Under the pieces are notes generated by a model. The model was not told where the DNA came from. It saw only the letters and a list, made by a program, of their open reading frames with translations, and did no database searches. Made by a program: the position numbers and the translations under genes. Positions 10,088-27,082 of a DNA stretch of 64,000 nt are shown piece after piece. Source of the stretch: a virus; IMG/VR virus record IMGVR_UViG_3300032245_001466, positions 18,938-82,937 of that record, one strand, 5' to 3'. Each line of letters begins with the position of its first letter. Position 1 is the first letter of the stretch.

Positions 10088-10340
10088 GCCTTTCTGTGGG
10101 GTTTGGAAGGCGCTTGGGGGCTGATTATCGAACCGCCAACCCCACTGCTGTGAAAAATCCGCCGGTGTCCCTAGCGCAGGGGCCAGGGGGGGCCTCGAGG
10201 GCGCACGAGAGGGGTTAGACCCGACCCTCCGGGTCTATCAGTCGACCAGATACAGACTGCGTGCGCGTGGCATTCTCTCCTCAGCGGCGAGACACTCTCG
10301 CCCATAGACGCATCGGACGCGATGCGAGAAGGAGTCAATC

Positions 10341-10637
10341 ATGACGGATCGAGTAGACGCAATCGGAGCCACGCTCCTCGCAATCTTCGCGGCAACGGTT
10401 GCCGCTATGATCTTCGGCAGCGTGCCGTTCAGCGTGCTGAACGATCACGCGTTCGCCTACGCGGTGATGTCGCTCACGATGGGCGTCATCGCAGCGGTAG
10501 CGTTCTTCGCTCTCATGGAGTTCGTTGTTGTTCCTGTTGTCGATAGGATCTACTGGGCGCGGCGAGCAGCACGCCAAGAGCGCGAGCGCATTGAGCGCGC
10601 TTATCGCTCGTGGTCAGTCACGCGCAATCAGCGCTAG
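10341..10637 (+). CDS. cassette gene L0, two-TM membrane protein
   Basis: AAGGAG RBS; two hydrophobic segments. Confidence 0.7.
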   Translation: MTDRVDAIGATLLAIFAATVAAMIFGSVPFSVLNDHAFAYAVMSLTMGVIAAVAFFALMEFVVVPVVDRIYWARRAARQERERIERAYRSWSVTRNQR

Positions 10638-10868
10638 TCGGATTCACCCGCTGTACCGCGGACGCGCGGTGCGGCGGGTGGTTCGTTCGCGCCCACCTGT
10701 GGCCGCGTTCGATCTCACACACACATAATATAAGTAAGTAACTAAGTAATCTGACTAACCTAACAGGTTCGAGACAGCGCTCCGCGCTTATCGAGGCCAC
10801 CTAATGACTGACCGCTATCGTGGCATTCTCTCGGTGCGGCAGTTGCCGTATAGTTTATTGGAGGGTGT

Positions 10869-11183
10869 ATGTTCGAGTATGGTGAACCAGTCGTATCCGC
10901 AACCTACCGCAACGACGCGGTCGCAACGGTCACGATGACCTATCCGTCATTGGAGGGCAAGCTTCCAATGTGGTACACGCTTGATTTGACAATCGGCGAT
11001 CTACCGCGTCTCGTTTGGGGCTACGGCGAATGGAAGGCGGGTAGCGTCAGCGATACGCCGCGCGTCTACTCACTGCTCAAGAATATTGGCGTGTGGACGG
11101 ATGTGCCAGCGTTCATCCGCAGGGATGTTCTCAACGACTACGCGTCATTGGTCGGCGTGACCATTCGCGGCAGCGTCCTGTAG
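10869..11183 (+). CDS. cassette gene L1, hypothetical
   Basis: GGAGG RBS; fills the space between repeats. Confidence 0.75.
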   Translation: MFEYGEPVVSATYRNDAVATVTMTYPSLEGKLPMWYTLDLTIGDLPRLVWGYGEWKAGSVSDTPRVYSLLKNIGVWTDVPAFIRRDVLNDYASLVGVTIRGSVL

Positions 11184-11408
11184 CGCACGCAACCCCCATC
11201 GTCCAGACCATCGGGTCTGGGCGGTGGGTGGTTCGTTGGCCGCCCCCCGATGGGCACAGTTCGATATCGAGACTCCATAATATAAGTAACAGCCTAACTA
11301 AGTTCGAAGCGGCGCTCCGCGCCTAACAACACCACCTAAACGAATCTGCTGCTCGTGGCACTCTCTTGGTGCGGGGCAACAGCACCGCAATAGTATGGAG
11401 GGAATCAA

Positions 11409-11624
11409 ATGGCGTCAACGGCATGGAATCGCAAGAGTGCTGATTGGTATCAGCACAAGGCTACTGAGATCGTTGATATTGCGATGGACCTCACGAATCC
11501 ATCGGCAGACCTGGCGTTGGGTCTAGCCCACAAATGCGCAACGGCGTGGAGCCTCTCACCGCTCAATCGTGAGAAGTTCATGATGCTCGTATACGCAACG
11601 TTCAAGAACGCAATCAAGAAGTAG
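11409..11624 (+). CDS. cassette gene L2, hypothetical
   Basis: GGAGG RBS; between repeats. Confidence 0.75.
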   Translation: MASTAWNRKSADWYQHKATEIVDIAMDLTNPSADLALGLAHKCATAWSLSPLNREKFMMLVYATFKNAIKK

Positions 11625-11869
11625 ATCGACCAATAGGTCGGCAACAGAATCCACTCGCGGGTCGCAGTCGATGCGGCTCGCGGGTGGTTCGTTCGCCACC
11701 ACACACAGGCCAGAGTTCTATCTCGAAGCTATGTAATATAAGTAAGTGGGTAACTAAGTTCGACGCGGCGCTCCGCGCCTAACATGCCCACCTAAACAAC
11801 ACTCTGGCGTGTGGCACTCTCTGGTCAGCGGCGGACGCGCCGCGTAATCGTATAGTAGTAGGAGGTAGT

Positions 11870-12166
11870 ATGGTAGACGCAACCGTCAAGCACTACAACC
11901 CTATCGAGTGGGTTGTCTGGTTCGTAGAGGATAGGTCGCTATCTGATACGGAGAATAGCATCGAGTTCACGGAGCTTCAGGATCGTGTGAATGATCGGAT
12001 CACCGCCGCAATCACGGCGCTCCGTCATTCCAATCCAAACGGCTGGCTCGATAGCCTGGATCAGGGTGGCATGCGCATCATTAACGATGCGCTCGCGCCG
12101 ATCCAATGCCGCACGAATCGTCAGGACGATTCTGGCGCGTGGATCATTGAACGAGTAGACGCGTAA
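11870..12166 (+). CDS. cassette gene L3, hypothetical
   Basis: AGGAGGT RBS; between repeats. Confidence 0.75.
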   Translation: MVDATVKHYNPIEWVVWFVEDRSLSDTENSIEFTELQDRVNDRITAAITALRHSNPNGWLDSLDQGGMRIINDALAPIQCRTNRQDDSGAWIIERVDA

Positions 12167-12402
12167 AACATCCCCCACTCATCGCGGACGCGCGGTGGGT
12201 GGGGGGTTAGTTCGTCGCACCCCGTTCTGTGGCCAAGTTCTAACTCGAGATCCCATAATATAACTAACAGCCTAACTAAGTTCGAGTCAGCGCTCCGCGC
12301 TTAACGAGCACACCTAAATGAATCTGCTGCTCGTGGCATTCTCTTCTTGCGAGCGATGGCACCCGTATAGCAGCGGTGCTCGCAGAAAGGTAGGTGTTCA
12401 CG

Positions 12403-12645
12403 ATGTCTAAGAATGACAATCTTGCCGTCGCGATCAAGCGCCGAGACAATGCTCTCGCGTTGCTTGTAAGCGCGAAGGCGGATGTTGTTGCTGCGACGCG
12501 TCGTATCGCCGAGAGCGGTGGTTCCTATTTGGGGAATCGCCCTTCGTCGCATCCGAGCGTTCAGACAGCACAACGCGTCCTCTGGAACGTTGAAGAGCAG
12601 TACGCCAAAGCGGCGGCTGATCTGGCAACGATCCAGAAGGCGTAG
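12403..12645 (+). CDS. cassette gene L4, helical hypothetical
   Basis: RBS-like AGGTAGGT; between repeats. Confidence 0.7.
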   Translation: MSKNDNLAVAIKRRDNALALLVSAKADVVAATRRIAESGGSYLGNRPSSHPSVQTAQRVLWNVEEQYAKAAADLATIQKA

Positions 12646-12916
12646 CGTCCGTCTGGATTCTCCGAACCGCTCGTCGCTGCTAGGCGAGCGGTTCCCCTTC
12701 TCCCCTCACCGAGCAAGCGCGGTGGGGGGAGAGGTCTATCGGGCCTCTCTCACTACGTTCGATCCCGACAGTCCATAATATAACTAACTAAGTAACTAAG
12801 TTCGAGTCAGCGCTCCGCGCTTAACGAGCCAACCTAAATGAATCTGCCGTCCGTGGGAATATTCATTTGCGACGGGAGAGACGTCGCCCATGTGGTTAAA
12901 GCAAATAGGAGGCTCT

Positions 12917-13189
12917 ATGACGGATACCGAAAAGAAGGCAGCTCCGGTCACGTTGCTGCCATTTGTTGTCGTGGTCGCACGACTCGTTGAATTCTACATC
13001 CCTGTAGCAGCGGCTACAGCGGCTGATGCGAGTGATATCGCTCAGCAGATGGTCATGGATGGCCATGCTGATGATTTCTCCAACGAATGCGACATCCAGG
13101 AGGATGACGTTGACGTTCGGGGGGCGACGTTTGACGATCGCAACCTGTACAAATTCTTTGACGCGGACGGCGAAGAGCACCGCTTCTAG
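12917..13189 (+). CDS. cassette gene L5, acidic hypothetical
   Basis: AGGAGG RBS before ATG 12917. Confidence 0.75.
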   Translation: MTDTEKKAAPVTLLPFVVVVARLVEFYIPVAAATAADASDIAQQMVMDGHADDFSNECDIQEDDVDVRGATFDDRNLYKFFDADGEEHRF

Positions 13190-13455
13190 ATCCTGACCGC
13201 CATCTCTCGGCGGTCAACATCCCCCTCACCGCAGCGATGCGGTGAGGGGGATGGTAGATCCCTAGTCTCTCTCACTACGTTCGAGCTCGAGAATCCGCAA
13301 TATAACTAACTAACTAACTAACCCAGAGTTCGACTCGCCGCTCCGCGGCTAACATGCGTACCTAAATGAATCGGGCGGTCGGGGCATTATGTCGGCACGG
13401 GGACGCCCGACGCGTTGTGAATCGCAACGCGAAACAGAATCAAATAGGAGGCAGT

Positions 13456-13716
13456 ATGGACGCACTGGAAATCTTGTACAAGGTATTCGCACTATCGTAT
13501 GTTGCCGAGCGCGAGGCGTATCGCAATGTTCAGCGTTGGGAGACGCTCGCAGCGGCGCAGGGGAAACCCGAACCGCAGTACGCAACCGATAGCGTGTACG
13601 CTTCGCTCATTGATGAGTGGGACGAAGCGCACAAGGAACTGAAGAAGTTTGAGCGCGAACTTCTCAAGGAGTACCGCAAGCAGCGAGCAGCGGGCACCTT
13701 CACAGTGATGGCGTAG
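13456..13716 (+). CDS. cassette gene L6, hypothetical
   Basis: AGGAGG RBS before ATG 13456. Confidence 0.75.
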   Translation: MDALEILYKVFALSYVAEREAYRNVQRWETLAAAQGKPEPQYATDSVYASLIDEWDEAHKELKKFERELLKEYRKQRAAGTFTVMA

Positions 13717-13951
13717 ACACCGCCACGACACCACACCCCATCAACCGCGGACGCGCGGTTGGTGGGGTGGTCGGTCGGTACTCTCTCTCACGTTGTTCGA
13801 GCTCGGCAGCCCATAAGATAACTAACTAACTAACTAACCAATAACTGGTTCGAATCGGCGCTCCGCGCCTAACGAGCCCACATAAACGAATCCGTCGCCT
13901 ATGACATTATTCAGGTGCGGCAGTTGCCGTGTAGTATGAAAGGGGAAAGAA

Positions 13952-14278
13952 ATGTCACACGAGTTAGAGTTCAGTCACGATCCAAAGAGCGTCGCAGATC
14001 CCTGCTCTCTGGATAGTATCGTTGAGGCGTACATTGAATTCCGCAACGCACCTGTGCGTGGCACGAATCTCGTTTATCGGCAAATGCCCGTAGACGAGAT
14101 GCTCGCGATGACGCGCCGACCAGAGGATTTCATTGAGAGGCTAGGATCGTGGGCTGCGATCTGGGGTTCAGATTCTCAGCGATACGACATCGGCAAGTTC
14201 GGGTGGTGGTCCTGCTCCGAGTGCGGCGCCGATGACATTGAGTTAGGTTCATACGACGACGAGTGCGACGAAGAGTAG
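13952..14278 (+). CDS. cassette gene L7, acidic, C-terminal CxxC
   Basis: AAGGGG RBS; WSCSECG...DDECDEE. Confidence 0.75.
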   Translation: MSHELEFSHDPKSVADPCSLDSIVEAYIEFRNAPVRGTNLVYRQMPVDEMLAMTRRPEDFIERLGSWAAIWGSDSQRYDIGKFGWWSCSECGADDIELGSYDDECDEE

Positions 14279-14499
14279 TCGCCAATCGCTCCACTCTCCC
14301 ACCGCTCACCGCTTCGGCGGTGGGCGGTGGTAGTTCCATCCCGAGTCTCTCACTTCGTTCGATCTCGAAACTCCATAAGATAACTAACTAACTGGGCGTT
14401 CGATCCGACGCTCCGCGTCTATCAGGAGAACCTAAACAATAATGGCGTCTATGTCATTGTCTCTCTGCGGCACCTGCCGTATAGTTTGTAGGAGGTAGT

Positions 14500-14823
14500 A
14501 TGTCGGACACAGAAACGATGAGCCTTCAGGAGATGGCTCGCGAACTGACGGTAATGCGCATTGAGCGTTCCCGCTGCTGCGATCCATACGATTGTATGCA
14601 TCACGAGATGTGCGGCGAAGAGTGGTACGGGAAATGCAGCGGCTGCGAGCGTCGTGCGTACCTTTCCAATGAATTCTACGCTGCGTGCGAAGCAGAGAAT
14701 GCAGATCCTGCCGCGCTGCTCAATGCAGAAGAGCGCGCTATTGAGGATGAGCGCTTTGACTTCTACTCGCGAATGAACGAGTGGGGCAATGACGACGCTG
14801 CCTTCTGGACCGATCAAGAGTAG
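14500..14823 (+). CDS. cassette gene L8, acidic Cys-rich
   Basis: AGGAGGT RBS. Confidence 0.75.
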   Translation: MSDTETMSLQEMARELTVMRIERSRCCDPYDCMHHEMCGEEWYGKCSGCERRAYLSNEFYAACEAENADPAALLNAEERAIEDERFDFYSRMNEWGNDDAAFWTDQE

Positions 14824-15032
14824 TCGCATCACCCCGTTCACCGCTTTGGCGGTGGGCGGGGTGGTCTACCGAGGCTCTCTCACTACGTTCGATACCGAAC
14901 CCCCGTAAGATAACTAACTAACCCTGAGTTCGACTCGGCGCTCCGCGCCTAACGAGAGCACCTAAATGAATCACCCCCTCGTGGCATTCTCTTGGTGCGG
15001 CACTTGCCGCGTAGTATGAAAGGGGAGCGCAA

Positions 15033-15338
15033 ATGTTTGATTGCGTAAAGCACGGCGAGGTAGCGAAGAGTCTCAGTGGCTATTGCGTTGCTTGCTGCTC
15101 AGAGGATCATATCTGCGAAACCTGCGGATTGCGCAGCGGCAGTGATGATGGCTTCACTCTCGTTGAGTGGCGCAGCACGCAAATTTGGAAGGGTCAGATG
15201 CTTTGCGATGATTGCGTTGCGTGCGCAGATTGCGAAGTTTCTGGTGACGGTACCGTGAACACCCACAACGATTACAGCGAACTGCTTTGCGATGCTTGCG
15301 TTGAGGATCGCGACGCAGAGTGGGAGAGCGAAGAGTAG
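15033..15338 (+). CDS. cassette gene L9, multi-CxxC acidic protein
   Basis: Several CxxC pairs; ends WESEE. Confidence 0.75.
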   Translation: MFDCVKHGEVAKSLSGYCVACCSEDHICETCGLRSGSDDGFTLVEWRSTQIWKGQMLCDDCVACADCEVSGDGTVNTHNDYSELLCDACVEDRDAEWESEE

Positions 15339-15571
15339 TCACAACCGATCCACTCCACCATCGTCAACCGCTCGGCGGTTGGCGGTGGTGGTTCAATCGG
15401 GAGTCTCTCACTTCGTTCGATCCCGACAGTCCGTAATATAACTAACTAATTAACTAACTAATAACTGGTTCGACTCGGCCCTCCGGGCCTATCGGCCTAA
15501 CATAAATGAATCAATCGTTTGCCGTACTCTCTGGGTGCGGCGGTTGCCGTGTAGTAATAAGGAGGCTAGTA

Positions 15572-15916
15572 ATGGGAGCAATGAAGAATCAAGCAATAGA
15601 GGAGCGCAACGATAGCGTCGTTGATTATCACACATGGCGATTCGTAGAAGCCGATGGCGGTGCTGATCAGCACGCGCTAGAGTGGTGGGCGTCATCATAC
15701 GCTCGCCGTGCCGATACCGCCGACGAAGCGGTAGACGTCATGGAGAAGCCGCATCACTACGCTGAGGAGATTGCAGAGTTCGCCAGCATTTATGCTGACG
15801 CGAGCGATGACGACCTCTCGCTATTCGGCTATTGGGAGTGTGAAGAGTGCGGCGAAGAGTCCAAGAGGATCTCGCACTCGATAGACATGGCGAAGACCTG
15901 CTACGGTCAGCAGTAG
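15572..15916 (+). CDS. cassette gene L10, acidic
   Basis: AAGGAGG RBS before ATG 15572; WECEECG. Confidence 0.75.
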   Translation: MGAMKNQAIEERNDSVVDYHTWRFVEADGGADQHALEWWASSYARRADTADEAVDVMEKPHHYAEEIAEFASIYADASDDDLSLFGYWECEECGEESKRISHSIDMAKTCYGQQ

Positions 15917-16145
15917 CGCACCGCCCCACTCACCGCTTCGGCGGTGGGTGGGGCGGTCTATCGGGCCTCTCTCACTTCGTTCGAGCTCGCCAACCTGACT
16001 AATAACTAACTGCATAACTAACTAAGATAACTAACCTAACGTTCTGACGCTCGCTCCGCTCGCTTCGGCCGAACTATAATGAACCCAGCGATTCAGGCAC
16101 TATGTCGGTGCGGGGCTTCCCGTGTTGCGATAAGGAGGCAATAAA

Positions 16146-16376
16146 ATGGTAGCGTGCCAAGATTGTGGCGTTGAGTTCTTCAACGAGTTTGAGCCACTAT
16201 CAACTATCTGCGCAGCGTGCGTAGATGAGCGCGATTCCTATTACGAGAAATGGGCGGCAGAATACGCTGACGCTATGGCGGAAGAAGATGACGCTTGGGA
16301 GCGCACCAAGCGCAGGATTAGCCCTGAGCGCGGGTTTATCGGAACGGATACCGACCCGCTACCAGGCGGCGACTAA
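16146..16376 (+). CDS. cassette gene L11, acidic Zn-ribbon
   Basis: AAGGAGG RBS; CQDCG...CAAC. Confidence 0.75.
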   Translation: MVACQDCGVEFFNEFEPLSTICAACVDERDSYYEKWAAEYADAMAEEDDAWERTKRRISPERGFIGTDTDPLPGGD

Positions 16377-16381
16377 ACCAG

Positions 16382-16502
16382 AAGCCCCTCGTTGCCACGC
16401 GGCAGCGGGGGGCTTTCTGTTTGACCCCTCCTCGCCGGGCGAGGAGGGCTTGCCCAAATAATAAGCCCCCCAAGAGCCTCGGCGGTTTCTTGGGGGGCTT
16501 GC
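16382..16502. terminator. convergent terminators at the junction of the two arms
   Basis: AAGCCCC...GGGGCTTTCTGTTT (+) and AATAATAAGCCCCC...GGGGGCTT (-), with a third hairpin between them. Confidence 0.75.
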
Positions 16503-16518
16503 TTTGCTTCTGGTGTGT

Positions 16519-16836
16519 TTATGCTTCTGCCTTTGCCTCGGCTTTCGCGTCATCTACATAGGTGCGTGCGATTTCGTGCCAGTTGATTGCCTCAACCGCG
16601 GCGCGCAATAGGTCTGCCTCAAGTCCTGCCGCCTTCGTTGTCCAAGTTTCGTCAATCTCGTTGCGCAAGGTGTCCGCGAGAGTGTCGGCGGCGTCGTCCG
16701 TGTCGCCTTCGTTGTCCGTAAGAATCTCGGCGGCAATCTCCGCAACATAGTCGCTGCCGCCCGCATAGCCTTCGCCAATCCACAACGCGGCAAGCCAAGT
16801 TTCGTAGTTGCTCCAGCCGTTGTATTGTCCGCTCAT
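16519..16836 (-). CDS. cassette gene R1, acidic YNGW-motif protein
   Basis: YNGWSNYETW...INW.EIA; GGAGG RBS; TTGACA(16903-16908)-18-TATAAT(16879-16884) promoter. Confidence 0.8.
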   Translation of the reverse strand: MSGQYNGWSNYETWLAALWIGEGYAGGSDYVAEIAAEILTDNEGDTDDAADTLADTLRNEIDETWTTKAAGLEADLLRAAVEAINWHEIARTYVDDAKAEAKAEA

Positions 16837-17017
16837 TGTCTAGCCTCCTTCTATGCCTTGCCCAAGTGGGCTAGTCGCATTATAGAGTGAGATTCTGCGC
16901 CCTGTCAAGCGTTCTATCTCAGGTAGCCGGGGCTACCTGAGCCATAACAATAAACCCCGCCGAAGCGGGGCTTATCGTTTCACGACGGGGGGCTAGTTCC
17001 CCGTAGCGAGCATCTAG

Positions 17018-17239
17018 TTATCGCGCAAGCGCGACGGCCTCTTGTACGCGGCTTGCCGCGCCCTCGGCGCTACCGAACTCCTCAATGCCGAACACCTCAA
17101 CGAGATTGTTTACAAAGTCGGTCGCCATCTTCTCAAAGTAGAAGGTCGTATCGCCCTCCGCGTCCTGCCCCTCATACCAACGGGCAAAGGTTGTGCTTGC
17201 TCCGTTTGTGTGAATCTGATACCAAGTGTTTGCGTTCAT
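17018..17239 (-). CDS. cassette gene R2b, hypothetical
   Basis: ORF coupled to upstream small Cys-rich ORF. Confidence 0.65.
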   Translation of the reverse strand: MNANTWYQIHTNGASTTFARWYEGQDAEGDTTFYFEKMATDFVNNLVEVFGIEEFGSAEGAASRVQEAVALAR

Positions 17240-17244
17240 TAGTC

Positions 17245-17394
17245 CTACTCCTCACATACGCAGGTTTCGCACCCGCAGTTGATTTTGTTGTGGCACTTCT
17301 CGCAAAGCACCTTGCCGCTCTGGTTGAGTGTTTCGCTCATACCATCGCCGCAGTTCTCGCAGGGCGAGTAGTCCAAGTCCTCAAAGGTCGCCAT
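17245..17394 (-). CDS. cassette gene R2a, 49-aa Cys-rich acidic protein
   Basis: MATFEDLDYSPCENCG...LCEKCH...CGCETCVCEE*; AGGAGG RBS; translated by hand. Confidence 0.65.
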   Translation of the reverse strand: MATFEDLDYSPCENCGDGMSETLNQSGKVLCEKCHNKINCGCETCVCEE

Positions 17395-17555
17395 TTCTAG
17401 CCTCCTATTCCTAGCCAGCCCAAGTGGGCTACGGGCATTATAGAGTCATCTTCTGCCTGCCGTCAAGTGGTTCTAGTCCAATCTGCCGAGGCAGATTGGA
17501 GGCAAACAAAAACGAGGGGCGCACCCCTCGTTTCTGTTTTCTGAGCTGCGAAACC

Positions 17556-17963
17556 TTACGCGATAGGGTAGCCGCCCAGTTCTAGCAGCGTGCGGATTTC
17601 TTCCACCTGCTCATCATTGAGGGCGAGCGTCTGCCCGTCCTTATCCTCTGCGGTGAGTACGCAGTTGCCATAGATGCCGTCAAAGTTTCCGCCGAGGATT
17701 TCATTTCGCAGCGAAGTTGCCGCCTGATTGCGGACGACTGGCTCATTGAAAAGCCCTTCCTCATCGCACCAGAGCACCACACTCGTTGCGCCGTACTTGC
17801 CAGAAACCGCAACCTCGGTAATGTCAAACTCGCCCACGCGGTAAATCTCTTTGAGCGTGCTGCCGTCATCGTTGAAGTCCACCACCTCAACCCAGTTGAA
17901 GAGTGCGCCGTTTGGCGTTGCGTCCTCAAACTTGCCGACTCCGAACTTGAACGCCTTACCCAT
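17556..17963 (-). CDS. DUF3846-like protein
   Basis: LWCDEEGLF....RN..AT...IYGNCVL...DG.T..L. Confidence 0.65.
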   Translation of the reverse strand: MGKAFKFGVGKFEDATPNGALFNWVEVVDFNDDGSTLKEIYRVGEFDITEVAVSGKYGATSVVLWCDEEGLFNEPVVRNQAATSLRNEILGGNFDGIYGNCVLTAEDKDGQTLALNDEQVEEIRTLLELGGYPIA

Positions 17964-18093
17964 TTTCTAGCCTCCTACTTTTTCCATCGGGAAGCCCCGA
18001 CCTCTGAATCTTACGCGATAAATCCGCAGCCTGTCAAGCGGGTTCTACCCCTAATGGCCGGAGCCATTAGGGGCTGAACTATTATCTGGCGAT

Positions 18094-18900: not shown

Positions 18901-19094
18901 AAGTCCTCCTACTCGCAACTATCGGTAGTTCCCGACCACACGATTATACGCGATAAGTTCTGAGCCTGTCAAGTTCCACCGCAAGGAGCCGAGGCTCCTT
19001 GCGCCTACCCAATAATGCTATCTACTGCTGATGAGGGCGAGTGTGTACAGCATTAGGAGCAGGAGCAGCCCGTAGAAGATGGCGTACTCCACAA

Positions 19095-19352
19095 TCATAC
19101 AACCACGCTTTGGAGCGCGTCGTAGCAGTCATCGCATAGCGACTGCTTATGCTCGTAGGCGTTCTCGTAGCCGTTCCAGCCGTAGGCAAACGAACGCGTC
19201 TTGCCCTCAAACGGGCAACGCTTGTCCAGACCAAGAGCCTCCTCGCCCTCGCACTCCTGAACCATTGGGTGATCGTGCGTTTCGCACTCGCATTGGTCGT
19301 AGTAGCAATCGCCGTTGCCACACATCGTCATTGACGCTTGTAGGTATGCCAT
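19095..19352 (-). CDS. cassette gene R6, Cys-rich acidic
   Basis: AAGGAGG RBS before ATG 19352. Confidence 0.7.
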   Translation of the reverse strand: MAYLQASMTMCGNGDCYYDQCECETHDHPMVQECEGEEALGLDKRCPFEGKTRSFAYGWNGYENAYEHKQSLCDDCYDALQSVVV

Positions 19353-19469
19353 TGTTGCCTCCTTCACTAGCCTCCCCAAGTGGGGTACTCGTATTCTATA
19401 CACACTCCTAGCCAGCCGTCAAGCGGGGTTCTAGTCATCTTTGCCGGAGCAAAGATGAGCAGAACAAAT

Positions 19470-19695
19470 AGAAAGACCCCCCAGAGCCGTCGCCCTGAGA
19501 GGTCTTTCCTCGGATTCGTTGTCTGGGGCTAATCACTTCCCCAGACTCCTTTTCCTTCCGCTCCGCCGATACATTGGCTCCTAGCGGTCATCGTCCTTTG
19601 CGTCTCTATCCCCGCATTTCTTGGCTGCGGCATCTGCTCGCTCGTCCAGAGTCTCACCCAGTCGGTTGCTATTCCTAGGATCGCTTCCGACATAG
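19470..19695 (-). ncRNA. candidate small RNA occupying a cassette slot
   Basis: TTGACA(19722-19727)-18-GATACT promoter and terminator hairpin near 19472-19508, with no RBS-led ORF between. Confidence 0.45.
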
Positions 19696-19855
19696 GGAGT
19701 ATCTCACCTCGTCTGGGGTCTTGTCAAGCACTTTCCCAAAGATTCTTTATGAATCTTTTTTATCCACCAGCCGCCCCCTTGACAGTTCTATCCCGAAGTG
19801 CAGCTGCACTTCGGGCTGCCACAATAATAAACTCAAAGAACAAGGAGCCAAATAA

Positions 19856-19990
19856 CTAACTCTCTTGCGGGTGCTCGCAGTTTTCTGACTGCTCCAACTC
19901 GTAGCACGCGTTATCCCGAACGGGATTGTCTACACACTCGCAGACAATCTCATTGCGTTCGCAGTCATCGCACCAAACCATCGTACTCAT
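19856..19990 (-). CDS. 44-aa Cys-rich acidic protein
   Basis: MSTMVWCDDCERNEIVCEC...; GGAGG RBS; translated by hand. Confidence 0.55.
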   Translation of the reverse strand: MSTMVWCDDCERNEIVCECVDNPVRDNACYELEQSENCEHPQES

Positions 19991-20208
19991 TAGAGCCTCC
20001 CAGTTCCGCCGCAGCCGCAGATGCCGCCCTCGCAGGTTGCGCCTTCCTCAACGAGCAGCGCGCAGCCGTACTTCTCGGCTCGGTGTTCCTCGCACGATTC
20101 GCAGTAAAGAGCAGATTTGCCAGACTCATTGTTGTCGGAGATGTACGCTGCCTGACCGTCGCAGAAGTCGCAGAAGCGCGACTCCAAGATGAACTCGCCC
20201 TCGCTCAT
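19990..20208 (-). CDS. Cys-rich small protein
   Basis: CDFCD...YCESCE...CEGGICGC. Confidence 0.65.
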   Translation of the reverse strand: MSEGEFILESRFCDFCDGQAAYISDNNESGKSALYCESCEEHRAEKYGCALLVEEGATCEGGICGCGGTGRL

Positions 20209-20414
20209 AGTGCCACCTCAAATCCGTCAGCCTGAATACCATCTAGAATCTGCTGAACATAGCGGCGCTCAATCGCAAGACCGCGACCAAGATACATCGC
20301 GTCCTCGCCGATGTTCTCGTCCAGCCAGCGGCGAGCATCGCTCGTCGTCGGAGTGAGTAGGCAGACGGAGCCGCCGTCCGTGAGCGTGAAGTCCGCGCTG
20401 TGCTTCTTTGCCAT
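20205..20414 (-). CDS. conserved small phage protein
   Basis: GSVCLLTP....A..WLDENI...LAIERRY...I..G...DG; AGGAGG RBS. Confidence 0.7.
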   Translation of the reverse strand: MAKKHSADFTLTDGGSVCLLTPTTSDARRWLDENIGEDAMYLGRGLAIERRYVQQILDGIQADGFEVAL

Positions 20415-20734
20415 TGTGTCCTCCTATCGCAACGCGCCCAAGTGAGCGTGAGGAAAGTGTAAATGATCATTGACCAGCCGTCAAGTTCTAACTCAAACAG
20501 CCGCGGCTGTTTGAGCCGAAACAATAAAGGGGAGCCGCGCCAGACACCACATCTGGCACGACTCCCCGCGTATCGCCGCTATGACGCTTATCCCCTTGCG
20601 GAGGCAACCTTCGGCTCTCGCCTAGTTGCTGCTGACTCTACCTTCTCTGGTTAGGAGCCCAAGAGCCAGACCTTATCGTCGCGGGCAGTTCGTCAATCTG
20701 CCAACTAGCCGTCCTCTACACGGCGCGGATTTAT

Positions 20735-21019
20735 TTACGCTTTCACCTCGTACTGCTCGCCGCCGATTCGCAGCGCGGTGATTGCGTCAAGGGCGATTGA
20801 GCGATAGCCCTCTGCGGTAATGTCATAGACGAAGATGAGGTCTTTGGCAGCAGCGTCATACGCAGCCTCGCCGCCTTTGAGATGCTTCTTTACGCCAAGA
20901 CGCGCCGTCATCTTGCGAAGTTCGCCCGTGGTTCGCTTGATGAAGTCCACGCCGAAGATTGCGCCATTGCTGTTGCGAATCATCTCTGCCGCTTCGCTTC
21001 GCTTGATTGCCTTTGCCAT
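20735..21019 (-). CDS. SH3/WYL-like beta-barrel protein (DUF2693-like)
   Basis: F.V.F.KRTTGELRKM.ARLGV...VYDI...GYRSI. Confidence 0.6.
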   Translation of the reverse strand: MAKAIKRSEAAEMIRNSNGAIFGVDFIKRTTGELRKMTARLGVKKHLKGGEAAYDAAAKDLIFVYDITAEGYRSIALDAITALRIGGEQYEVKA

Positions 21020-21141
21020 TTCTTCCTCCTTGTTCACAGCACCCCAATCGGGGCAAGCCCATTATAGGGTCATCTTTTGCCAGCCGTCAAGTGGGTTCTA
21101 GCCCAAGAGGCCGGAGCCTCTTGGGGCTGAACTATAATCGC

Positions 21142-21318
21142 CTACTTCCAGTCTTCTGGAACTAACTGCCAATCCTTTTCGCAATCACTAGAATAAAGGT
21201 CGCAATGCCGACACCAGACGACAAAGCAGCCCTCCTCGTGTCCGTCTTTCTCGCAATCAGACCAGAGCCAATGCGCCTCGCGAAGATTGTCTGGGCAGTC
21301 GCAGCGAAGAACGCTCAT
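21142..21318 (-). CDS. small Cys-rich protein
   Basis: Coupled to upstream gene. Confidence 0.5.
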   Translation of the reverse strand: MSVLRCDCPDNLREAHWLWSDCEKDGHEEGCFVVWCRHCDLYSSDCEKDWQLVPEDWK

Positions 21319-21764
21319 AGGACTTCGCAACCTTTCAGGGTGCGGCAAAGACCCAGAAACTCTCGCCACTCCTCAATAATCGCAACCCAAGCCGTAGCCT
21401 CTTCATCTGGGTCAGCCTTCGTCTTATCGTCCGTGTACGGGCTGGCAAGAAGAATACCAGTAATAATCTTCTTGATTTCTTCTTCGCTCAACTTGGAGAT
21501 GGCATTGTGTAGTTCTTCGCACTCATAGTCCTTGATGATGTTGCCGCTGTTATCGTACAGATTCTCATTGACCTCGGTGAATCCAATCTCATCGTGGAAA
21601 GCGCGCAGGTAGCCCATACCCCAAATGTTCAGTCGGAAATAGACCGCGCTTGGAGCCTTCTCAGCGTAAGAGCCGTCTGGCTCAATCCACATTGAGCGGA
21701 ACTTCTTGGCGTGCGCCGCAGCCAGTTCACGATTCTCTCGCAATGAGTAGATGTCGTATCCCAT
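21315..21764 (-). CDS. conserved phage protein (YFRLNIWGM...FL..C..CEV)
   Basis: AAGGAGG RBS before ATG 21764. Confidence 0.7.
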   Translation of the reverse strand: MGYDIYSLRENRELAAAHAKKFRSMWIEPDGSYAEKAPSAVYFRLNIWGMGYLRAFHDEIGFTEVNENLYDNSGNIIKDYECEELHNAISKLSEEEIKKIITGILLASPYTDDKTKADPDEEATAWVAIIEEWREFLGLCRTLKGCEVL

Positions 21765-21917
21765 TTTGTCCTCCTTATTCCACACCCCAATCAGGGCAAG
21801 GTCATTGTAAGGTACCGCTCTCCGCTCGTCAATAGGTTCTAGCCAAGATGGCCGGAGCCATCTTGGGTACAACAAAAAACCGCCCGAAGGCGGTTAGTTG
21901 TTTGGAAATAATCCTGA

Positions 21918-22394
21918 CTAAACGATAACTTCCTGCGGCTCCATAAGCCCAGCCCAGATGTTTGGCACATTAGAGCGGATGCTCGTGTATCCGTCAGAGG
22001 AAATAACGAGATGGTCAAGAAACTCAATGTCCAACAGGCGCGCCCCTGCCACCAAGTCCTCAGTTAGTTTCTTGTCCTCGTCGGACGGAGTGTGGTCGCC
22101 GCTTGGGTGATTGTGAACAACCACAATGCCCTGACCGCCAGTCAGGATACAAGAGCGAAACACTTCGTTGATGCGAACGCTTGTGCCTGTTGCCGTGCCA
22201 AGATAGACCTGCTCAATCCCGATGAGATTATTCCTTGCCCCAAGCACCATCACAAACAGCGACTCCTGATTAGAGTCCTTTGCGAAATCGCGGAACATCT
22301 TTACTGCCTCGGCTGGCTGCTCAACCCTCTCATCGGACTGATCAGCAACCTTCTTTCTCTTTACCACCATTTCGTATGCTTTCCAGTTCTTCAC
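21918..22394 (-). CDS. RadC-like JAB domain protein
   Basis: QE...V..L..RN, VHNHPSGD..PS.ED..LT, LLDIEFLDHLVI. Confidence 0.9.
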   Translation of the reverse strand: MKNWKAYEMVVKRKKVADQSDERVEQPAEAVKMFRDFAKDSNQESLFVMVLGARNNLIGIEQVYLGTATGTSVRINEVFRSCILTGGQGIVVVHNHPSGDHTPSDEDKKLTEDLVAGARLLDIEFLDHLVISSDGYTSIRSNVPNIWAGLMEPQEVIV

Positions 22395-22939
22395 GCTACC
22401 ACCACCTTTGCTGCTTCCTCTTTGGTTGTCTTGCCGCTGCGAATCTCATCTCGCAACTCAATCCCTTCCTTCATCCAGATTGCGTCAAGTTCGGCGTTGC
22501 GCTTCTCAGCGTGCTTTGCCTCGCGCAAACCTTCCTCAGTCATACGCTCAACAACGCGCTTGCGCCAAGCCGTCGGCGACTCATAAGAGGCGTTTGTTGA
22601 GAGTCCGATGTGCCGAACGATGTCGGCACGCGTCAGAGGGCGAGCCTCAAAGCAATCTGCGTTCTTATCGCCGTCTGGCTCGTTTCCGTTCCATACGGTC
22701 ATCTTTGAGAGCCAACCGATTTCGTATGCGAGCGCGAGTCGCTGCTCCCACTCATCCACATTGGCTTCGGTGATTTCGTTTAGTCCAATCGTCATCGTCG
22801 CCCAGATGAAGGAGTTCGTGATTGGGCTGAGGTACTCCTCGCCGCGCACGCGTCCATCCATCACGCTGCTCTTTGTTGCGGTGAGCCAACAGACATCATC
22901 CGCGTCCTTGATGTTTCCCACGAACCAACTTAGTGGCAT
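22391..22939 (-). CDS. hypothetical protein
   Basis: AAGGAGG RBS; IGL.EITE.N...HIGLSTNA. Confidence 0.7.
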   Translation of the reverse strand: MPLSWFVGNIKDADDVCWLTATKSSVMDGRVRGEEYLSPITNSFIWATMTIGLNEITEANVDEWEQRLALAYEIGWLSKMTVWNGNEPDGDKNADCFEARPLTRADIVRHIGLSTNASYESPTAWRKRVVERMTEEGLREAKHAEKRNAELDAIWMKEGIELRDEIRSGKTTKEEAAKVVVA

Positions 22940-23067
22940 ACTGCCTCCTTATGTCCTCTTATCGGGAAGCCCCGACCTGCTTATTCTAAGACCACGCTTG
23001 ACCCGCTGTCAAATGGGTTCTAGTCCAATGAGCCGGAGCTCATTGGAGGCGAACTATTATCTGCTTA

Positions 23068-23538
23068 TTACTTGATTTGGTTTGTCGTATAACCGCACGC
23101 CATACAAACTGGGACGGAGCAGCCTTCGGGATTGTCGCCCGTATCTACGCCCTCATCTGGGTCGCACAATCCACACGGCGCATAATCGACATCACGGCAG
23201 AGGCACTCGCTTTTCGCATCTCGCGGCAAGTCGTTGTAGTGCCTGTGCCAGTTTGCGTCGCCGTCGCGATTCAGCGCAAACTCGCAATCAGGGCGGAAGC
23301 ACCAACCATCAGCAACGGCTTCCTTGTCCGACATAAATGGCGGGTGAAACTCACACTCGCACGGAGCGCAGTCCAAGCAGTAGACGAGATAGCCATCTGG
23401 CACGCTTCCATCATACTGATCAAAGTCAAGCGTATCGAATCGCGTGTACGGCATACCATTCCAAGTGCCGATGACCTTCTCGTCGGCGTAGAAGACCATC
23501 GTGGAGCAGCGAACGCATTTGTCCATCTGCCCACTCAT
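23068..23538 (-). CDS. Cys-rich hypothetical protein
   Basis: Multiple CxxC; coupled. Confidence 0.6.
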   Translation of the reverse strand: MSGQMDKCVRCSTMVFYADEKVIGTWNGMPYTRFDTLDFDQYDGSVPDGYLVYCLDCAPCECEFHPPFMSDKEAVADGWCFRPDCEFALNRDGDANWHRHYNDLPRDAKSECLCRDVDYAPCGLCDPDEGVDTGDNPEGCSVPVCMACGYTTNQIK

Positions 23539-23843
23539 TCTGCTTCCTCCCACTCCGCGCCCTGCTCAATCAGGGAAACGAATCCTTCATTTGGATCATC
23601 GTGGTTGGTGTGAACTGCCTGTACGAATCGCAACGAACAAGAGTTCTCGTACCACTCCATCACCGCGCTCAGCATCTCATCTGGCGTGGTGTCTTCCGCG
23701 GAGATCAGCGGATCATAGCCGTACCCGCGCATCTCCGACATCTGCTCATCGTCCATCAAGACATAGATCTTGTGGCAGGTATCAAACGCGATGCCCTTCG
23801 CATTTTCTAGATACTCCTCAACCTTGTCGAAACTCGCTGCCAT
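23535..23843 (-). CDS. conserved acidic phage protein (IAFDTCHKIY...WYENSCSLRF)
   Basis: AGGAGG RBS and own promoter. Confidence 0.7.
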   Translation of the reverse strand: MAASFDKVEEYLENAKGIAFDTCHKIYVLMDDEQMSEMRGYGYDPLISAEDTTPDEMLSAVMEWYENSCSLRFVQAVHTNHDDPNEGFVSLIEQGAEWEEAE

Positions 23844-24003
23844 TTCGTCCTCCTAGTTTCTACACGGCAACTGCCGTAGGTGGATTGTAAGGCACAACCT
23901 AGCGGCTCGTCAAATGTTCTACTCCAAGTGGCCGGAGCCACTTGGAGTAAAACAAAAATCCCGCCCCGAAGGGCGGGATTTCTGGTTGATCTTCTGGTGA
24001 AGA

Positions 24004-24966
24004 TTACGCGAGGGCGAGAATCGCCTCGCGCTTTGTCTTCGCTGCGAAGCCCGTATCCAACATCACGCTTGACGCTCGCGCATCAAGAGCCGTTGAGCGA
24101 ACGCCGCCACGATACGAAACGCCGTGATCGAGGTACTCCGCGATGGCGTTGTACACGCCCCACTTCGTATCGCGAAGCCCGTCAAGATTCTCCGCGTTAT
24201 TGAGAATCGCGAAAGTTGCCTTAGCGCGCTCCGACATTACTTCCTTATCGCGCTTCTCCGATTCAGAGAGCGGGAAGATCTTTGAGATGATGCGGAACGC
24301 CTCAGATCGCTCAATCTTCTGGGCAACCATCTGCGAGCCGATGCGCGAGAACTCATCAACAGCGGCAGAGGCAAGCCCAAGAGCGCGCTTCGCCTCCGCG
24401 ACTTTCTCCTCAATCTTCGCCGTGTGGCGAAGTGTGAACGACATCTTCGCGCTTCCAAGAGCCGCGTTGAGCGTATTCTGGCATACCACGCGCACAGGAG
24501 TGATCATCGCTTTGAGCGGGAACAGCCCGTTGTGCCCATTGGCGATGACGAGGTAAGTCGTCGTGCCGCCGTTGTCGCCCTTGATCTCGATCTTCTCAGG
24601 AATCTCCAACGCCGCGAAGATCACCTGACCGCCTTTGAGTGAACCAGCCGTTTCGTAGCGCGCACCCTCATCAAGCAGCGCGTCCGCGAACGACAGCATC
24701 TCATCGTTCTGGATTGGCGTGTAGCGGTCGCCGACAACGCCAAGAACCGCGCCGTCAGTTGATCGAACATTTGCGCGCTTGCCCTCGATGGCGAGCGTCT
24801 TGTTGTCGAGCGTTGTGAAGATCGGCTGCTGCTTGACCTGCCAATCAAGACCCGCGGCAACGATCATTTCCGCGCTCGTAGTAAGACCTGCGTTTGCTAC
24901 GCCAAGTCCGTGCCACGGCATACCGCGCTCCGCGTTGTATGCCATCGTTTCTACCTCGTGTGCCAT
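24004..24966 (-). CDS. DUF932 family phage/plasmid protein
   Basis: MAHEVETM...PWHGLG...AGLDW.V...LGVVG.RY..IQN...YETAGSL.GG...TPVRVVCQNTL...RHT. Confidence 0.9.
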   Translation of the reverse strand: MAHEVETMAYNAERGMPWHGLGVANAGLTTSAEMIVAAGLDWQVKQQPIFTTLDNKTLAIEGKRANVRSTDGAVLGVVGDRYTPIQNDEMLSFADALLDEGARYETAGSLKGGQVIFAALEIPEKIEIKGDNGGTTTYLVIANGHNGLFPLKAMITPVRVVCQNTLNAALGSAKMSFTLRHTAKIEEKVAEAKRALGLASAAVDEFSRIGSQMVAQKIERSEAFRIISKIFPLSESEKRDKEVMSERAKATFAILNNAENLDGLRDTKWGVYNAIAEYLDHGVSYRGGVRSTALDARASSVMLDTGFAAKTKREAILALA

Positions 24967-25151
24967 TGTGTCCTCCTTCTTTACATACGGCAACTGCCGT
25001 AAGAAGATTCTCCCACAAGCACAAGATCGCGTCAAGTTCTAGCCCAAAGGGCCGGAGCCCTTTGGGTGGAACATAATAATAAGCCCCCCGAATAATCGAG
25101 GGGCTTATTACTTTGTGGGGCGCAGGGAGGACGCCTTGCGCCCCGAAGTCA

Positions 25152-25964
25152 TCAGCCTCCGACGATGCCGCCGAAATGCTCCTCGCAGAACGACTCAAAC
25201 TCCGTCTGCGGAACGGCATCATAATCTCGCTCGCCGTATTGCGGCTTGCCATCTTCGCCCTTGTACCACGCCTCATCTGGCAGCGAGTCGCCATCGCCAA
25301 ACTCACGCCGCGAGATTTCGTTTCCCGCGTGATAGACAACTTCGCCAGCGTAGCCCATACCGCCTTCGCAATAACGATGAGTAATGGTCAGCGTTGGGAA
25401 TAACCCAGAGAGCGCGTGAATCACAGGCTCGGCAGGGCTCCACGCGGTATCAAAGTTGTATGAAGTTATACCCGCGACAAATGAGTCGTCGCGGTCGTGC
25501 CAAGCCTCGGAGCAGTTCCACTTTGTTCCCCAATGCTCAACATTCCAGTTGTACCACCAGTCTGGGTGTGAGGAAATCTTTGGGGTGTTGTGCTTTGGGC
25601 AGACCTCTGAGCCGCCGAACATCTGAGCAACAGAGTCAGTAATCGTGCCGTTATCAAGGTTCGTCTTCTTTACCTCAACGCCGTCCACAGCCCAATAGCC
25701 TTCTTGAGGCTCAAAGCCGTAGTCCTTCTCGTACTCGTGTCCTTCGGCTCCCTTGACCACCGCCTTGGTGATAACGAACTCTGGGTGGCAGCCACAAAGG
25801 AAATCGTTCTGATTCTCGTTGGCTGAATAGTACGGAACATCAGGAGTCGGAACAATCTTCGCGAAATCGAAGCCGTCCTCTTCGCCCTTGACCAACTCAA
25901 TGAGTCGGACAATCTCCTGCTCGTTTCCGCTGATGTCTACTTGGTTTACGCACCAGTTTGGCAT
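25152..25964 (-). CDS. DUF1281/YubB-like ferredoxin-fold protein
   Basis: MPNWC.N...FDF..IVP.P...WYNWNVEHWGTKWN...FDTAWSP...Y.E.G. Confidence 0.85.
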   Translation of the reverse strand: MPNWCVNQVDISGNEQEIVRLIELVKGEEDGFDFAKIVPTPDVPYYSANENQNDFLCGCHPEFVITKAVVKGAEGHEYEKDYGFEPQEGYWAVDGVEVKKTNLDNGTITDSVAQMFGGSEVCPKHNTPKISSHPDWWYNWNVEHWGTKWNCSEAWHDRDDSFVAGITSYNFDTAWSPAEPVIHALSGLFPTLTITHRYCEGGMGYAGEVVYHAGNEISRREFGDGDSLPDEAWYKGEDGKPQYGERDYDAVPQTEFESFCEEHFGGIVGG

Positions 25965-26085
25965 TGTGTCCTCCTTGTGTCCTCGCGGGAAGCCCCGCAC
26001 CATTGGATTGTAAGCCACCGCTTCCGCTGCTGTCAAGTTCTACCTCAACAAGCCGGAGCTTGTTGAGCGCGAACTAATTATTTTT

Positions 26086-26418
26086 TTATTTATCGAAAGA
26101 GAGTGCACTAACTCCGTCAGGCGTCATGACCACATGTCCACCTTCGACGAAGATGCGTCCGCCATCGTTAGCCTCATCATCAGATGAAATAATCAGGGAA
26201 TAACGCTTGCCGTTCTGCTTGACGAATAACACGGGCATGTATGGCTCTTCCTCGCCATCGCCAATAACTGTCCCACCAATAATCGTCGCCCCAATAAATG
26301 GCTCGACCATCTCTGTCCGAAGGTAGTGGCGCTCAATGGCATCGCGGCTCAAGCCAGTCCGCTCTTTCACTAACTGATTCCTATTGCTCAATAACTGCGC
26401 AATCGTTTCGACAGCCAT
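26086..26418 (-). CDS. first gene of right arm, hypothetical
   Basis: AAGGAGG RBS; TTGACA/TATAAT promoter at ~26458-26488. Confidence 0.7.
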   Translation of the reverse strand: MAVETIAQLLSNRNQLVKERTGLSRDAIERHYLRTEMVEPFIGATIIGGTVIGDGEEEPYMPVLFVKQNGKRYSLIISSDDEANDGGRIFVEGGHVVMTPDGVSALSFDK

Positions 26419-26623
26419 AACTTCCTCCTTACACCTATAGGCTAACTGCCTAACCGCATTATAAGTCAGCCAATAACCGTCTGTCAAATAATAAGGTTCG
26501 GGCCTCGCTTGCGAGCTCGGGACTGCCCCAAATAATAAGTCTTGTCAACTCCCCCCACCCCCACCCCAAACTTGACTCCCCGCTATCCCCTGCCTTACAA
26601 TGCCCCCATAGGAAAGGAGTCGC

Positions 26624-27081: not shown

Positions 27082-27082
27082 G

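Follow-up and report, generated by a model that had tools for sequence, protein, structure and literature searches.

Two convergent arms of small gene units joined by palindrome-bearing linkers in the genome of a tailed phage

In T4-type phages, motifs called PeSLs (promoter-early stem-loops), each composed of a terminator, an AT-rich tract and a sigma-70 promoter, lie between ORFan genes. Indels and replacements arise through them, and homologous exchange between adjacent copies yields mini-circles; no dedicated enzyme is known for this (PMC2839356; PMC4122927). Their stem-loops are terminators, and the authors of the first account also speculated that the stem-loop may be the target of a protein (PMC2839356). 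Here we describe a comparable array in a 64,000-nucleotide stretch of viral DNA (the window), which corresponds to positions 18938-82937 of a virus record that is complete (82,937 bp) and has terminal repeats (IMG/VR record IMGVR_UViG_3300032245_001466). Between 10.2 and 26.5 kb of the window, two convergent arms comprise about 27 single-promoter units, whose linkers carry palindromic elements of two classes, a 26-bp element (class A) in the plus arm and a 38-bp palindrome (class B) in the minus arm. We consider it probable, though well short of certain, that the array is a PeSL-like accessory or early region in which autonomous units are joined by repeated regulatory linkers.

Like the hyperplastic regions of T4-type myoviruses, the array consists of repeated terminator/AT-rich/sigma-70 linkers between small ORFans that form self-contained units (PMC2839356; PMC4122927). 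In both systems relatives differ by indels, replacements, reordering and exchange inside linkers, and no dedicated recombinase is known in either. The strong sigma-70-like early promoter that characterizes the repeated PeSL motif is present in the minus arm, whereas the promoters of the plus arm are weak. A stem-loop acting as terminator or attenuator belongs to the PeSL motif; here terminator-like hairpins, which may have such a role, precede 8 of the 13 typical class B palindromes, and the palindrome proper has no U tract. Unlike the PeSL-bearing phages, the present one is not T4-like (it encodes a portal, an SU10-like capsid protein and a tape-measure protein, and no isolate listed exceeds 27% identity to its terminase), its linkers contain an additional, separate palindrome with Watson-Crick-only pairing and a stem that differs in every copy, and two linker types are distributed over two convergent arms. 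Because the phage is of a different kind, the array stands outside the T4-type PeSL set, though its way of working is PeSL-like. The general phenomenon has already been described, as PeSLs; the present array adds a layout in two arms with one element class each, a G-U control by which the palindromes are assigned to DNA, and a mini-hairpin that resembles that of phage N4 base for base.

The plus arm (10.1-16.4 kb) has 12 units with a start-to-start spacing of 456-564 bp and contains 11 perfect class A elements (consensus GTTCGA-N3-(5-bp stem)-TCC-(stem)-TAWC, 26 bp) and one degenerate copy (at about 16041), whose counterpart in the last unit of the related contig G001 keeps 3 of 5 pairs. Each unit has a long GC-rich RNA-type hairpin after the stop codon, a CTCTCTCACT-CGTTCGA box and a TAACTAACTAA tract, then the class A element, a ACCTAAAT box and a -10-like hexamer (NAYTNT), and finally a 5' hairpin, a ribosome-binding site of the AGGAGG type and one open reading frame (ORF) of 71-114 aa. 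The plus arm promoters are only weakly sigma-70-like. They were also tried as extended -10 (TG) promoters, a reading that suits the window phage and was dropped because it does not fit G001 or a second related contig, G002. The features of this arm and of the zone in which the two arms meet are the following.

10100-16380, plus strand: plus arm, 12 units
10214-10239, plus strand: class A element 1 (GTTAGA variant; 5-bp stem, TCC loop, TATC)
10767-10792, plus strand: class A element 2
11302-11327, plus strand: class A element 3
11758-11783, plus strand: class A element 4
12280-12305, plus strand: class A element 5 (DNA fold also computed)
12800-12825, plus strand: class A element 6
13328-13353, plus strand: class A element 7
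13848-13873, plus strand: class A element 8
14398-14423, plus strand: class A element 9
14928-14953, plus strand: class A element 10
15468-15493, plus strand: class A element 11
16041-16074, plus strand: degenerate twelfth element of the plus arm (CTCCG kept, stem not complementary)
16384-16505, no strand assigned: convergence zone, three terminator-like hairpins between the arms

The minus arm runs from 26.5 down to 16.5 kb and has 15 strong promoters of the sigma-70 type (TTGAC(A/G)-N17-18-TAnAAT), 13 of which have a class B palindrome 0-5 nt upstream of the -35 box. The 13 typical palindromes (consensus GTTC-N3-(10-bp stem)-N4-(stem)-N-TAGAAC, 38 bp) lie between 16911 and 26074 and are accompanied by one variant. 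The linker reads, in order, terminator (in 8 of 13), AT-rich tract, 38-bp palindrome, near-consensus sigma-70 promoter, 5' hairpin and strong ribosome-binding site, and the distance from the -10 box to the 5' hairpin is identical in the two arms.

16911-16948, minus strand: class B palindrome, promoter 16908-16879 (site of a one-cassette indel relative to contig G003)
17470-17507, minus strand: class B palindrome, promoter 17466-17437
18042-18079, minus strand: class B palindrome, promoter 18037-18008
18509-18546, minus strand: class B palindrome, promoter 18506-18477
18973-19010, minus strand: class B palindrome with a 5' flank other than GTT, promoter 18972-18943
19428-19465, minus strand: class B palindrome, promoter 19422-19393
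19790-19817, minus strand: variant palindrome with AGCT centre, next promoter (19727-19698) about 55 nt away
20485-20522, minus strand: class B palindrome, promoter 20484-20456
21095-21132, minus strand: class B palindrome, promoter 21090-21061
21836-21873, minus strand: class B palindrome, promoter 21832-21804
23017-23054, minus strand: class B palindrome, promoter 23012-22983
23916-23953, minus strand: class B palindrome, promoter 23913-23884
25036-25073, minus strand: class B palindrome, promoter 25035-25007
26037-26074, minus strand: class B palindrome, promoter 26036-26007
26458-26533, minus strand: first unit of the minus arm, with consensus promoter 26487-26458 behind a GC-rich inverted repeat of atypical form, not a class B element

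A consensus scan of positions 9500-27500 gave 25 sigma-70-like promoters versus 9.7 +/- 3.4 in shuffled sequences; 15 of them are the strong minus-strand promoters that track the units. Hairpins with a TCCG apex number 19 inside the array and 2 in the other 66 kb of the genome. The original prediction, made from the sequence of the window, of a convergent array of about 27 units with structured elements was borne out: the repeats and their geometry are as stated there, and the distribution of TCCG-apex hairpins, the class B folds and the covariation speak against chance.

Several further regularities were seen in the linkers. The TAACTAACTAA tracts of the plus arm have stops in all three frames, and the TAACTAACTAACTAA-type tracts directly before class A elements (e.g., 12776-12799, 13298-13322 and 13819-13839) have stop codons in all three sense frames, which would act as a translational stop-all. 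The end-of-gene hairpins of the plus arm are situated about 75-135 nt upstream of each class A element and are GC-rich, with 13-17 pairs; since a U tract is missing, possible roles are those of a factor-dependent terminator or of a structure protecting the 3' end. A 5'-untranslated hairpin core, CGGCAGTTGCCG, follows promoters of both arms (10837-10848, 13918-13929, 23860-23871 and 24985-24996), and 5' leader modules are therefore common to the two linker types. On the plus strand, GTTCGA occurs 20 times in the plus arm and GTTCTA 14 times in the minus arm, and the reverse complements of both hardly occur in the array (1+1 and 0; counted over both arms, 36 plus-strand copies versus 2 reverse complements), so that the outer hexamer keeps one physical orientation across both convergent arms. 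This polarity is real, but as a single binary coincidence between two element classes it deserves little weight.

Pairing and covariation of the palindromes

The class B alignment comprised 63 38-mers from four genomes and was anchored on the promoter and GAAC alone (59 elements and 4 non-elements), which avoids circularity. All 10 stem pairs vary on both sides, and 166 cells have changed at both partners, as compared with 39.0 +/- 7.5 in column shuffles (none of 500 as high). Paired cells amount to 93.8%, falling to 31-47% when the partner is slid by 1-3 columns, and G-U occurs in only 2 cells of the 10-pair helix. For class A, 35 copies from the four genomes were gathered without requiring pairing: 34 of them have five out of five Watson-Crick pairs, G-T is found in none, the loop is TCC in all 35, and three of the five pairs covary (17 double-change cells versus 3.2 +/- 1.5; 0/500 as high). 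An internal control was provided by the end-of-gene hairpins of the plus arm, among whose 855 predicted pairs 85 are G-U (10%) and for which the sense strand gives the better fold in 30 of 34. Since the stems of the palindromes are almost exclusively Watson-Crick, while RNA hairpins of the same region use 10% G-U, we infer that the palindromes are DNA-level structures and not RNA signals.

Between close relatives the class B stem changes are all compensated, with 8 double and 0 single changes between the window and G003 and 1 double and 0 single between L157 and L161, in a comparison of orthologous stems whose detection rule required at least 9 perfect pairs. The DNA folds of class B have z-scores of -5.1 to -8.5. 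Eight of the 13 class B copies stand directly behind a terminator-like hairpin with a T tract and therefore would often escape transcription; a U tract after the palindrome was found on neither strand.

Three parts of class B stay constant, namely its flanks (GTT..., ...TAGAAC), the YCCAA/TTGGR outer stem and the loop-closing GC pairs. A CTCCG apex had been noted as usual in both arms, and this holds for 11/11 class A elements, but in the minus arm only for 8 of the 13 typical class B palindromes of the window and for none of the 32 in G001 and G002, where the loops are GGCG, CGCC, CGCG, TGCG or CGCA, some of them mutual reverse complements within one arm. The conserved apex had suggested that the elements are read by a dedicated factor; in the 38-bp element it is lineage-specific.

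Exchange of cassettes between relatives

Three IMG/VR contigs with many element copies were recovered by a pattern scan and three others (L157, L158 and L161) by a protein-based scan; one class B pattern match in IMG/VR (L003) was discarded as a chance hit with no hairpin. Cargo proteins were clustered into families, which were then mapped between the elements. The six relatives have a common scaffold in which cassettes are permuted, gained or lost. In the minus arm the same families occur in permuted order over the seven genomes, with several cassettes moving and some present or absent; the DUF932 gene, e.g., is third in the window and G003, fourth in G002, L157 and L161, and seventh in G001. 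In the plus arm, neighbouring cassettes are swapped between G001 and G002, and one cassette is replaced between the window and G003. Over pairwise comparisons of these related genomes, gene adjacencies were broken in 199 of 311 cases with an element between the genes versus 22 of 102 without, and among four divergent lineages in 49/65 versus 6/16 (Fisher p = 0.006). The prediction of modular, insulated cassettes exchanged through the repeats agrees with these comparisons, since order and content differ between relatives at the linkers, and the alignment of relatives proposed as its check displays gain, loss and reordering with breaks at element-bearing linkers.

The clearest single event separates the window from G003, which is 89% identical to it and has an extra 90-aa cassette between two class B elements at a place where the window has one element (16911-16948). 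Both homology edges of this indel fall inside the element or the -35 region, and the two homology blocks overlap within the element. The window element looks chimeric, its outer arms resembling one G003 copy and its inner arms and promoter the other, but two compensated substitutions and one crossover in the shared TAGAACGCTTGAC explain this look equally well. Contigs 85-99% alike are present in freshwater and lake metagenomes, and in three such studies, compared over the array region, they skip cassettes (one in the joint 12324>12876, six in 12343>15535, both examples occurring in two runs) or have them reordered. These joints fall on or next to class A elements, or within the promoter/5'-untranslated part of the linker, and backward joints fit circles and permuted order alike. 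One run, marked as possible RNA, is probably DNA and made up of contigs only, and was set aside as evidence of transcription. In distant DUF932-bearing contigs, 74 of 79 loci are without either element, and the promoter array is absent altogether from L159, L160 and L162.

These observations suggest how a PeSL-like region of this kind might work. The linkers would insulate each unit, and at the same time the repeated linkers would serve as the substrate of ordinary homologous recombination, carried out by the PD-(D/E)XK exonuclease of the phage with a partner or by host functions, which could move whole self-expressing cassettes and leave their neighbours undisturbed. A stem that differs in every copy might limit the uninterrupted homology between neighbouring linkers. 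The palindromes may be extruded as hairpins or cruciforms by the negative supercoiling that builds up just upstream of active promoters and, at about -40 to -80, could act as a boundary or as a regulatory element or switch, their constant GTTC(G/T)A and AAC flanks possibly being read by a factor; alternatively, they may be a simple supercoil-sensitive switch. We infer their placement relative to the transcription start itself from the -10-to-5'-hairpin distance common to the arms. As to the recombination functions, an exonuclease and an annealing protein had been predicted upstream of the array. The nuclease (2060-2932) indeed belongs to the PD-(D/E)XK family in Pfam, but the ORF at 1494-2063, the supposed annealing protein, matched no Pfam family and its PHROGs matches are all of unknown function. 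Shuffling by such a pair, of which only the nuclease half was confirmed, is plausible.

A number of points weigh against this explanation. The adjacency counts come from related genomes and are not independent, and breakpoints at the elements are partly forced: different cassettes have nothing but the linkers in common, so that joints are bound to be placed there by every aligner as well as by every homologous exchange, and the contribution of the palindrome cannot be told from that of the remaining linker. Single class A hairpins are not exceptionally stable in the DNA energy model (z -1.3 to -1.5), which leaves conservation and covariation as the basis of the case for class A. From lineage to lineage the class B loop varies, which speaks against a general loop-specific reader of class B, and the gap between class B and the -35 box, 0-5 nt as a rule but 13-14 nt in four of the relatives' copies, counts against the idea of a phased activator. 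Extrusion, protein binding and an effect on transcription are predictions from sequence, and the "early" timing and the function of the cargo would be carried over by analogy.

Phages store and trade fast-evolving accessory genes, probably for host takeover and counter-defence, in arrays of self-expressing ORFan cassettes. The present array offers unusually clean sequence evidence for a boundary element that acts as folded DNA and not as RNA or a plain operator (about 90 copies in four genomes, with fully compensated stems, next to no G-U and an RNA-hairpin control from within the region). If DNA hairpins do insulate or switch promoters here, this would amount to a design rule of phage early regions that can be tested, and the elements would be a ready supply of natural insulator parts that differ from one another.

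Other readings of the elements

Class A also resembles the promoters of the virion RNA polymerase (vRNAP) of phage N4. According to PMC4496689, these consist of a hairpin from -17 to -5 with a 3-base loop and a GC-rich heptamer centred at -11; in the stem of 5-7 bp the variable bases need only pair, the vRNAP contacts template bases -8G, -9C, -10G, -11G and -12A, and the hairpins extrude at physiological supercoiling owing to their stable loop. The motif GCGNAGC is called an "extraordinarily stable mini-hairpin DNA" in PMC13037366. The bottom strand of class A, in the N4 register, is GC-GGA-GC in 35/35 copies, the bases from -4 to -1 are TAWC in 33 copies and TTAC in 2, and a purine follows in every one of the 35. 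The N4 promoter hairpin thus recurs base for base in an unrelated phage. One reading of this likeness, which we regard as unlikely, is that the class A elements are supercoil-extruded N4-type hairpin signals outside the N4-like phages, either promoters of a divergent polymerase or switches that hand weak promoters over to the host polymerase, and that the class B palindromes are their cruciform counterparts on the early arm; if it were true, DNA secondary structure would be the common control principle of the whole 16-kb array.

A narrower version, more doubtful in our view, takes class A for N4-type DNA-hairpin promoters proper, with a GGA triloop on the template and a 5-bp stem, from which a so-far-unrecognised polymerase would start at the purine after TAWC, making the plus arm a separate transcription class. 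It would account for the geometry, since the 5-bp stem, the 3-base loop and the GC-GGA-GC core of all 35 copies match the N4 promoter as described (PMC4496689), as well as for the TAWC spacer followed by a purine and for the mini-hairpin motif (PMC13037366). It would also suit the promoter scan, which found no consensus promoter of the minus arm type (TTGAC[A/G]-N17-18-TAnAAT) at any unit of the plus arm, the only plus-strand matches there being weak ones at 12230 and 14457 (9/12) that do not recur from unit to unit. Against it, -35-like and -10-like boxes at sigma-70 spacing are kept downstream of class A in both lineages, the -10-to-hairpin distance equals that of the minus arm, and class B, with its 4-nt loop and 10-bp stem, precedes genuine sigma-70 promoters from the same upstream position. 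N4 has three promoters at one genome end (PMC4496689), unlike the present genome, where 11-12 copies occur, a sigma-70-like -10 box following each at about 45 nt, and where no vRNAP-like gene was found.

The polymerase in question was sought in several ways. Pfam RNA_pol had no match in the six frames of the complete genome, which is weak evidence because the control genomes were silent for RNA_pol too. The largest proteins were compared with structures in the Protein Data Bank (PDB): a 1590-aa protein, which as a lead only resembles a tail spike, had no PDB match at E <= 0.01; the 2628-aa part of the giant protein that lies in the window had, at E <= 1, one insignificant match (glutathione S-transferase, E 0.022); and a 7-sequence profile of the entire 3611-aa protein, run against all PDB chains including the N4 vRNAP entries, returned nothing below E = 0.087. 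Among the large proteins of unassigned function, nothing polymerase-like appeared in PHROGs, and a crude regular-expression search for motifs A/B/C was negative. The search for an RNA polymerase in the rest of the genome, suggested with the original prediction, hence recognised none; the giant protein carries only a tape-measure motif, and the sequence methods used may miss a very divergent polymerase. The likeness between class A and N4 may, more economically, reflect convergent use of one small, easily extruded DNA hairpin.

Palindromes just upstream of promoters may also be ordinary duplex operators for a dimeric phage repressor or activator, as in plasmid RK2, where palindromic KorB operators lie just upstream of -35 boxes. 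The constant outer parts of class B (GTTC...YCCAA / TTGGR...TAGAAC), the position immediately upstream of the promoters and the presence nearby of genes for a helix-turn-helix protein and a ParB_N protein (37205-37885) would fit. Almost every copy, however, has its own bases at three to four inner stem positions, and these stay complementary, for which a dimer reading the duplex gives no reason, and the spacing to the -35 box is variable, so that we hold this reading to be improbable. Two candidate DNA-binding factors are encoded beyond the array, namely the protein with the ParB_N domain on the plus strand and a small helix-turn-helix protein at 35878-36228 on the minus strand.

It is quite improbable that the elements are recombination sites of an integron-like or HUH/REP-like kind, at which a dedicated enzyme recognises folded hairpins and excises or inserts cassettes. 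The appeal of this idea lies in hairpins of conserved structure and variable sequence, with constant flanks, at every cassette boundary, in the gain, loss and permutation of cassettes at the elements and in the chimeric-looking element at the G003 indel; in the use of folded DNA sites that bound cassettes and conserve structure rather than sequence, the array does resemble the attC/IntI system. But in the six frames of the complete genome there was no match to tyrosine integrases (Phage_integrase, PF00589; the control responded in 14/14 genomes), nor to serine recombinases (Resolvase) or Y1 transposases (Y1_Tnp, PF01797; controls responded), which extends to the whole genome the original observation that no site-specific recombinase is visible. 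Integron cassettes are promoterless and read from one common promoter, and attC sites are imperfect hairpins with RYYYAAC / GTTRRRY cores, whose extrahelical, bulged bases serve to choose the strand and whose flank order differs from GTT...AAC. Here a promoter comes with each cassette, pairing in the stems is perfect and leaves no base extrahelical, the flanks are GTT...AAC, the elements are shorter (26 and 38 bp), and the chimera is explained equally well by the two compensated substitutions and the TAGAACGCTTGAC crossover. With no integrase, resolvase or Y1/HUH transposase in the complete genome, the integron analogy drawn originally is unsupported; the lack of a Y1 HUH transposase (PF01797) likewise sets the palindromes apart from REP/RAYT and IS200/IS605 hairpins.

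Least probable of all is an action of the palindromes at the RNA level, be it in termination, as sites for RNase III or in stabilising the 3' ends of read-through transcripts, for which one could cite their location on the 3' side of each upstream unit, the 5 of 13 class B copies with no other terminator before them and the terminator role of PeSL stem-loops (PMC2839356), but which is contradicted by the low G-U tolerance (2 cells in the class B helix and none in class A, against 10% in RNA hairpins of the region), by the missing U tract on both strands, which also distinguishes them from intrinsic terminators, and by the canonical terminator ahead of 8 of the 13 copies.

Cargo genes and the rest of the genome

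DUF932, RadC-JAB and DUF1281-like genes had been reported from the array, and all three were confirmed by Pfam, together with a fourth family:

17556-17963, minus strand: DUF3846 protein (Pfam E 1.1e-09)
21918-22394, minus strand: RadC-like JAB domain protein (Pfam E 7.8e-32)
24004-24966, minus strand: DUF932 protein (Pfam E 2.4e-51)
25152-25964, minus strand: DUF1281_C (Api92-like ferredoxin-like) domain protein (Pfam E 5.4e-12)

A Pfam family was found for none of the 10 plus arm proteins scanned, and 7 of the 10 minus arm proteins scanned had no PHROG match. The impression that the cargo genes lack evident similarity to one another needs one correction, in that a plus arm family is present twice (13952-14278 and 15572-15916). 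A tie of the cargo to plasmid leading regions or anti-defence would be an analogy and not a result. One cassette slot of the minus strand (19470-19730) combines its promoter (19727-19698) with a hairpin of terminator type (19509-19470) but holds no ORF led by a ribosome-binding site; the same slot exists in G003, and it could specify a small RNA of about 220 nt.

The genome is that of an uncultured tailed phage from fresh water. It encodes portal, terminase and tail fibre proteins and an SU10-like capsid protein, and combines a prohead serine protease (Peptidase_S78) and a ferritin-like domain in one 720-aa protein. The giant tape-measure-like protein has 3611 aa in the stored copy (P0001), its homologues being 3474-3772 aa long with one partial match of 2360 aa; a TMP_3 motif at about residues 1720-1830 is its sole recognised part, and residues 1-1700 are unassigned.

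Window 56116-63999, continuing into genome 1-3077, plus strand: giant tape-measure-like protein
L034 13804-15966, minus strand (own genome, outside the window): Peptidase_S78/ferritin-like 720-aa protein

Near-identical phage records were not found. Isolate relatives were sought through two proteins; all lie below 60% identity, the matches listed ranging over 24-27% (terminase) and 33-45% (DUF932), and for this reason no host can be named. A scan of 185,579 bacterial and archaeal genomes with the class A pattern gave 120 loci, of which those listed have a single match each and form no clusters; as prophages or clues to a host they were rejected as chance matches.

Upstream of the array lie genes for the PD-(D/E)XK nuclease, a DnaC-like loader, a single-stranded DNA-binding protein and a MazG-like protein, and the two ORFs directly upstream of the plus arm, considered as candidates for the RNA polymerase, proved to be PurM-like and glycosyltransferase-like. 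The 236-aa PurM-like protein (8035-8745, plus strand) is up to about 60% identical to genes annotated as PurM or phosphoribosylaminoimidazole synthetase in Pelagibacter phages and cyanophages, a similarity that hints at an aquatic host. Outside the array, a 71-aa ORF (29583-29798, minus strand) represents sigma-70 region 4 in stand-alone form (Pfam Sigma70_r4, E 1.7e-14), with a C-terminal tail resembling that of a primary sigma factor; its product may switch the polymerase between the -35-dependent promoters of the minus arm and the plus arm promoters with their poor -35 boxes.

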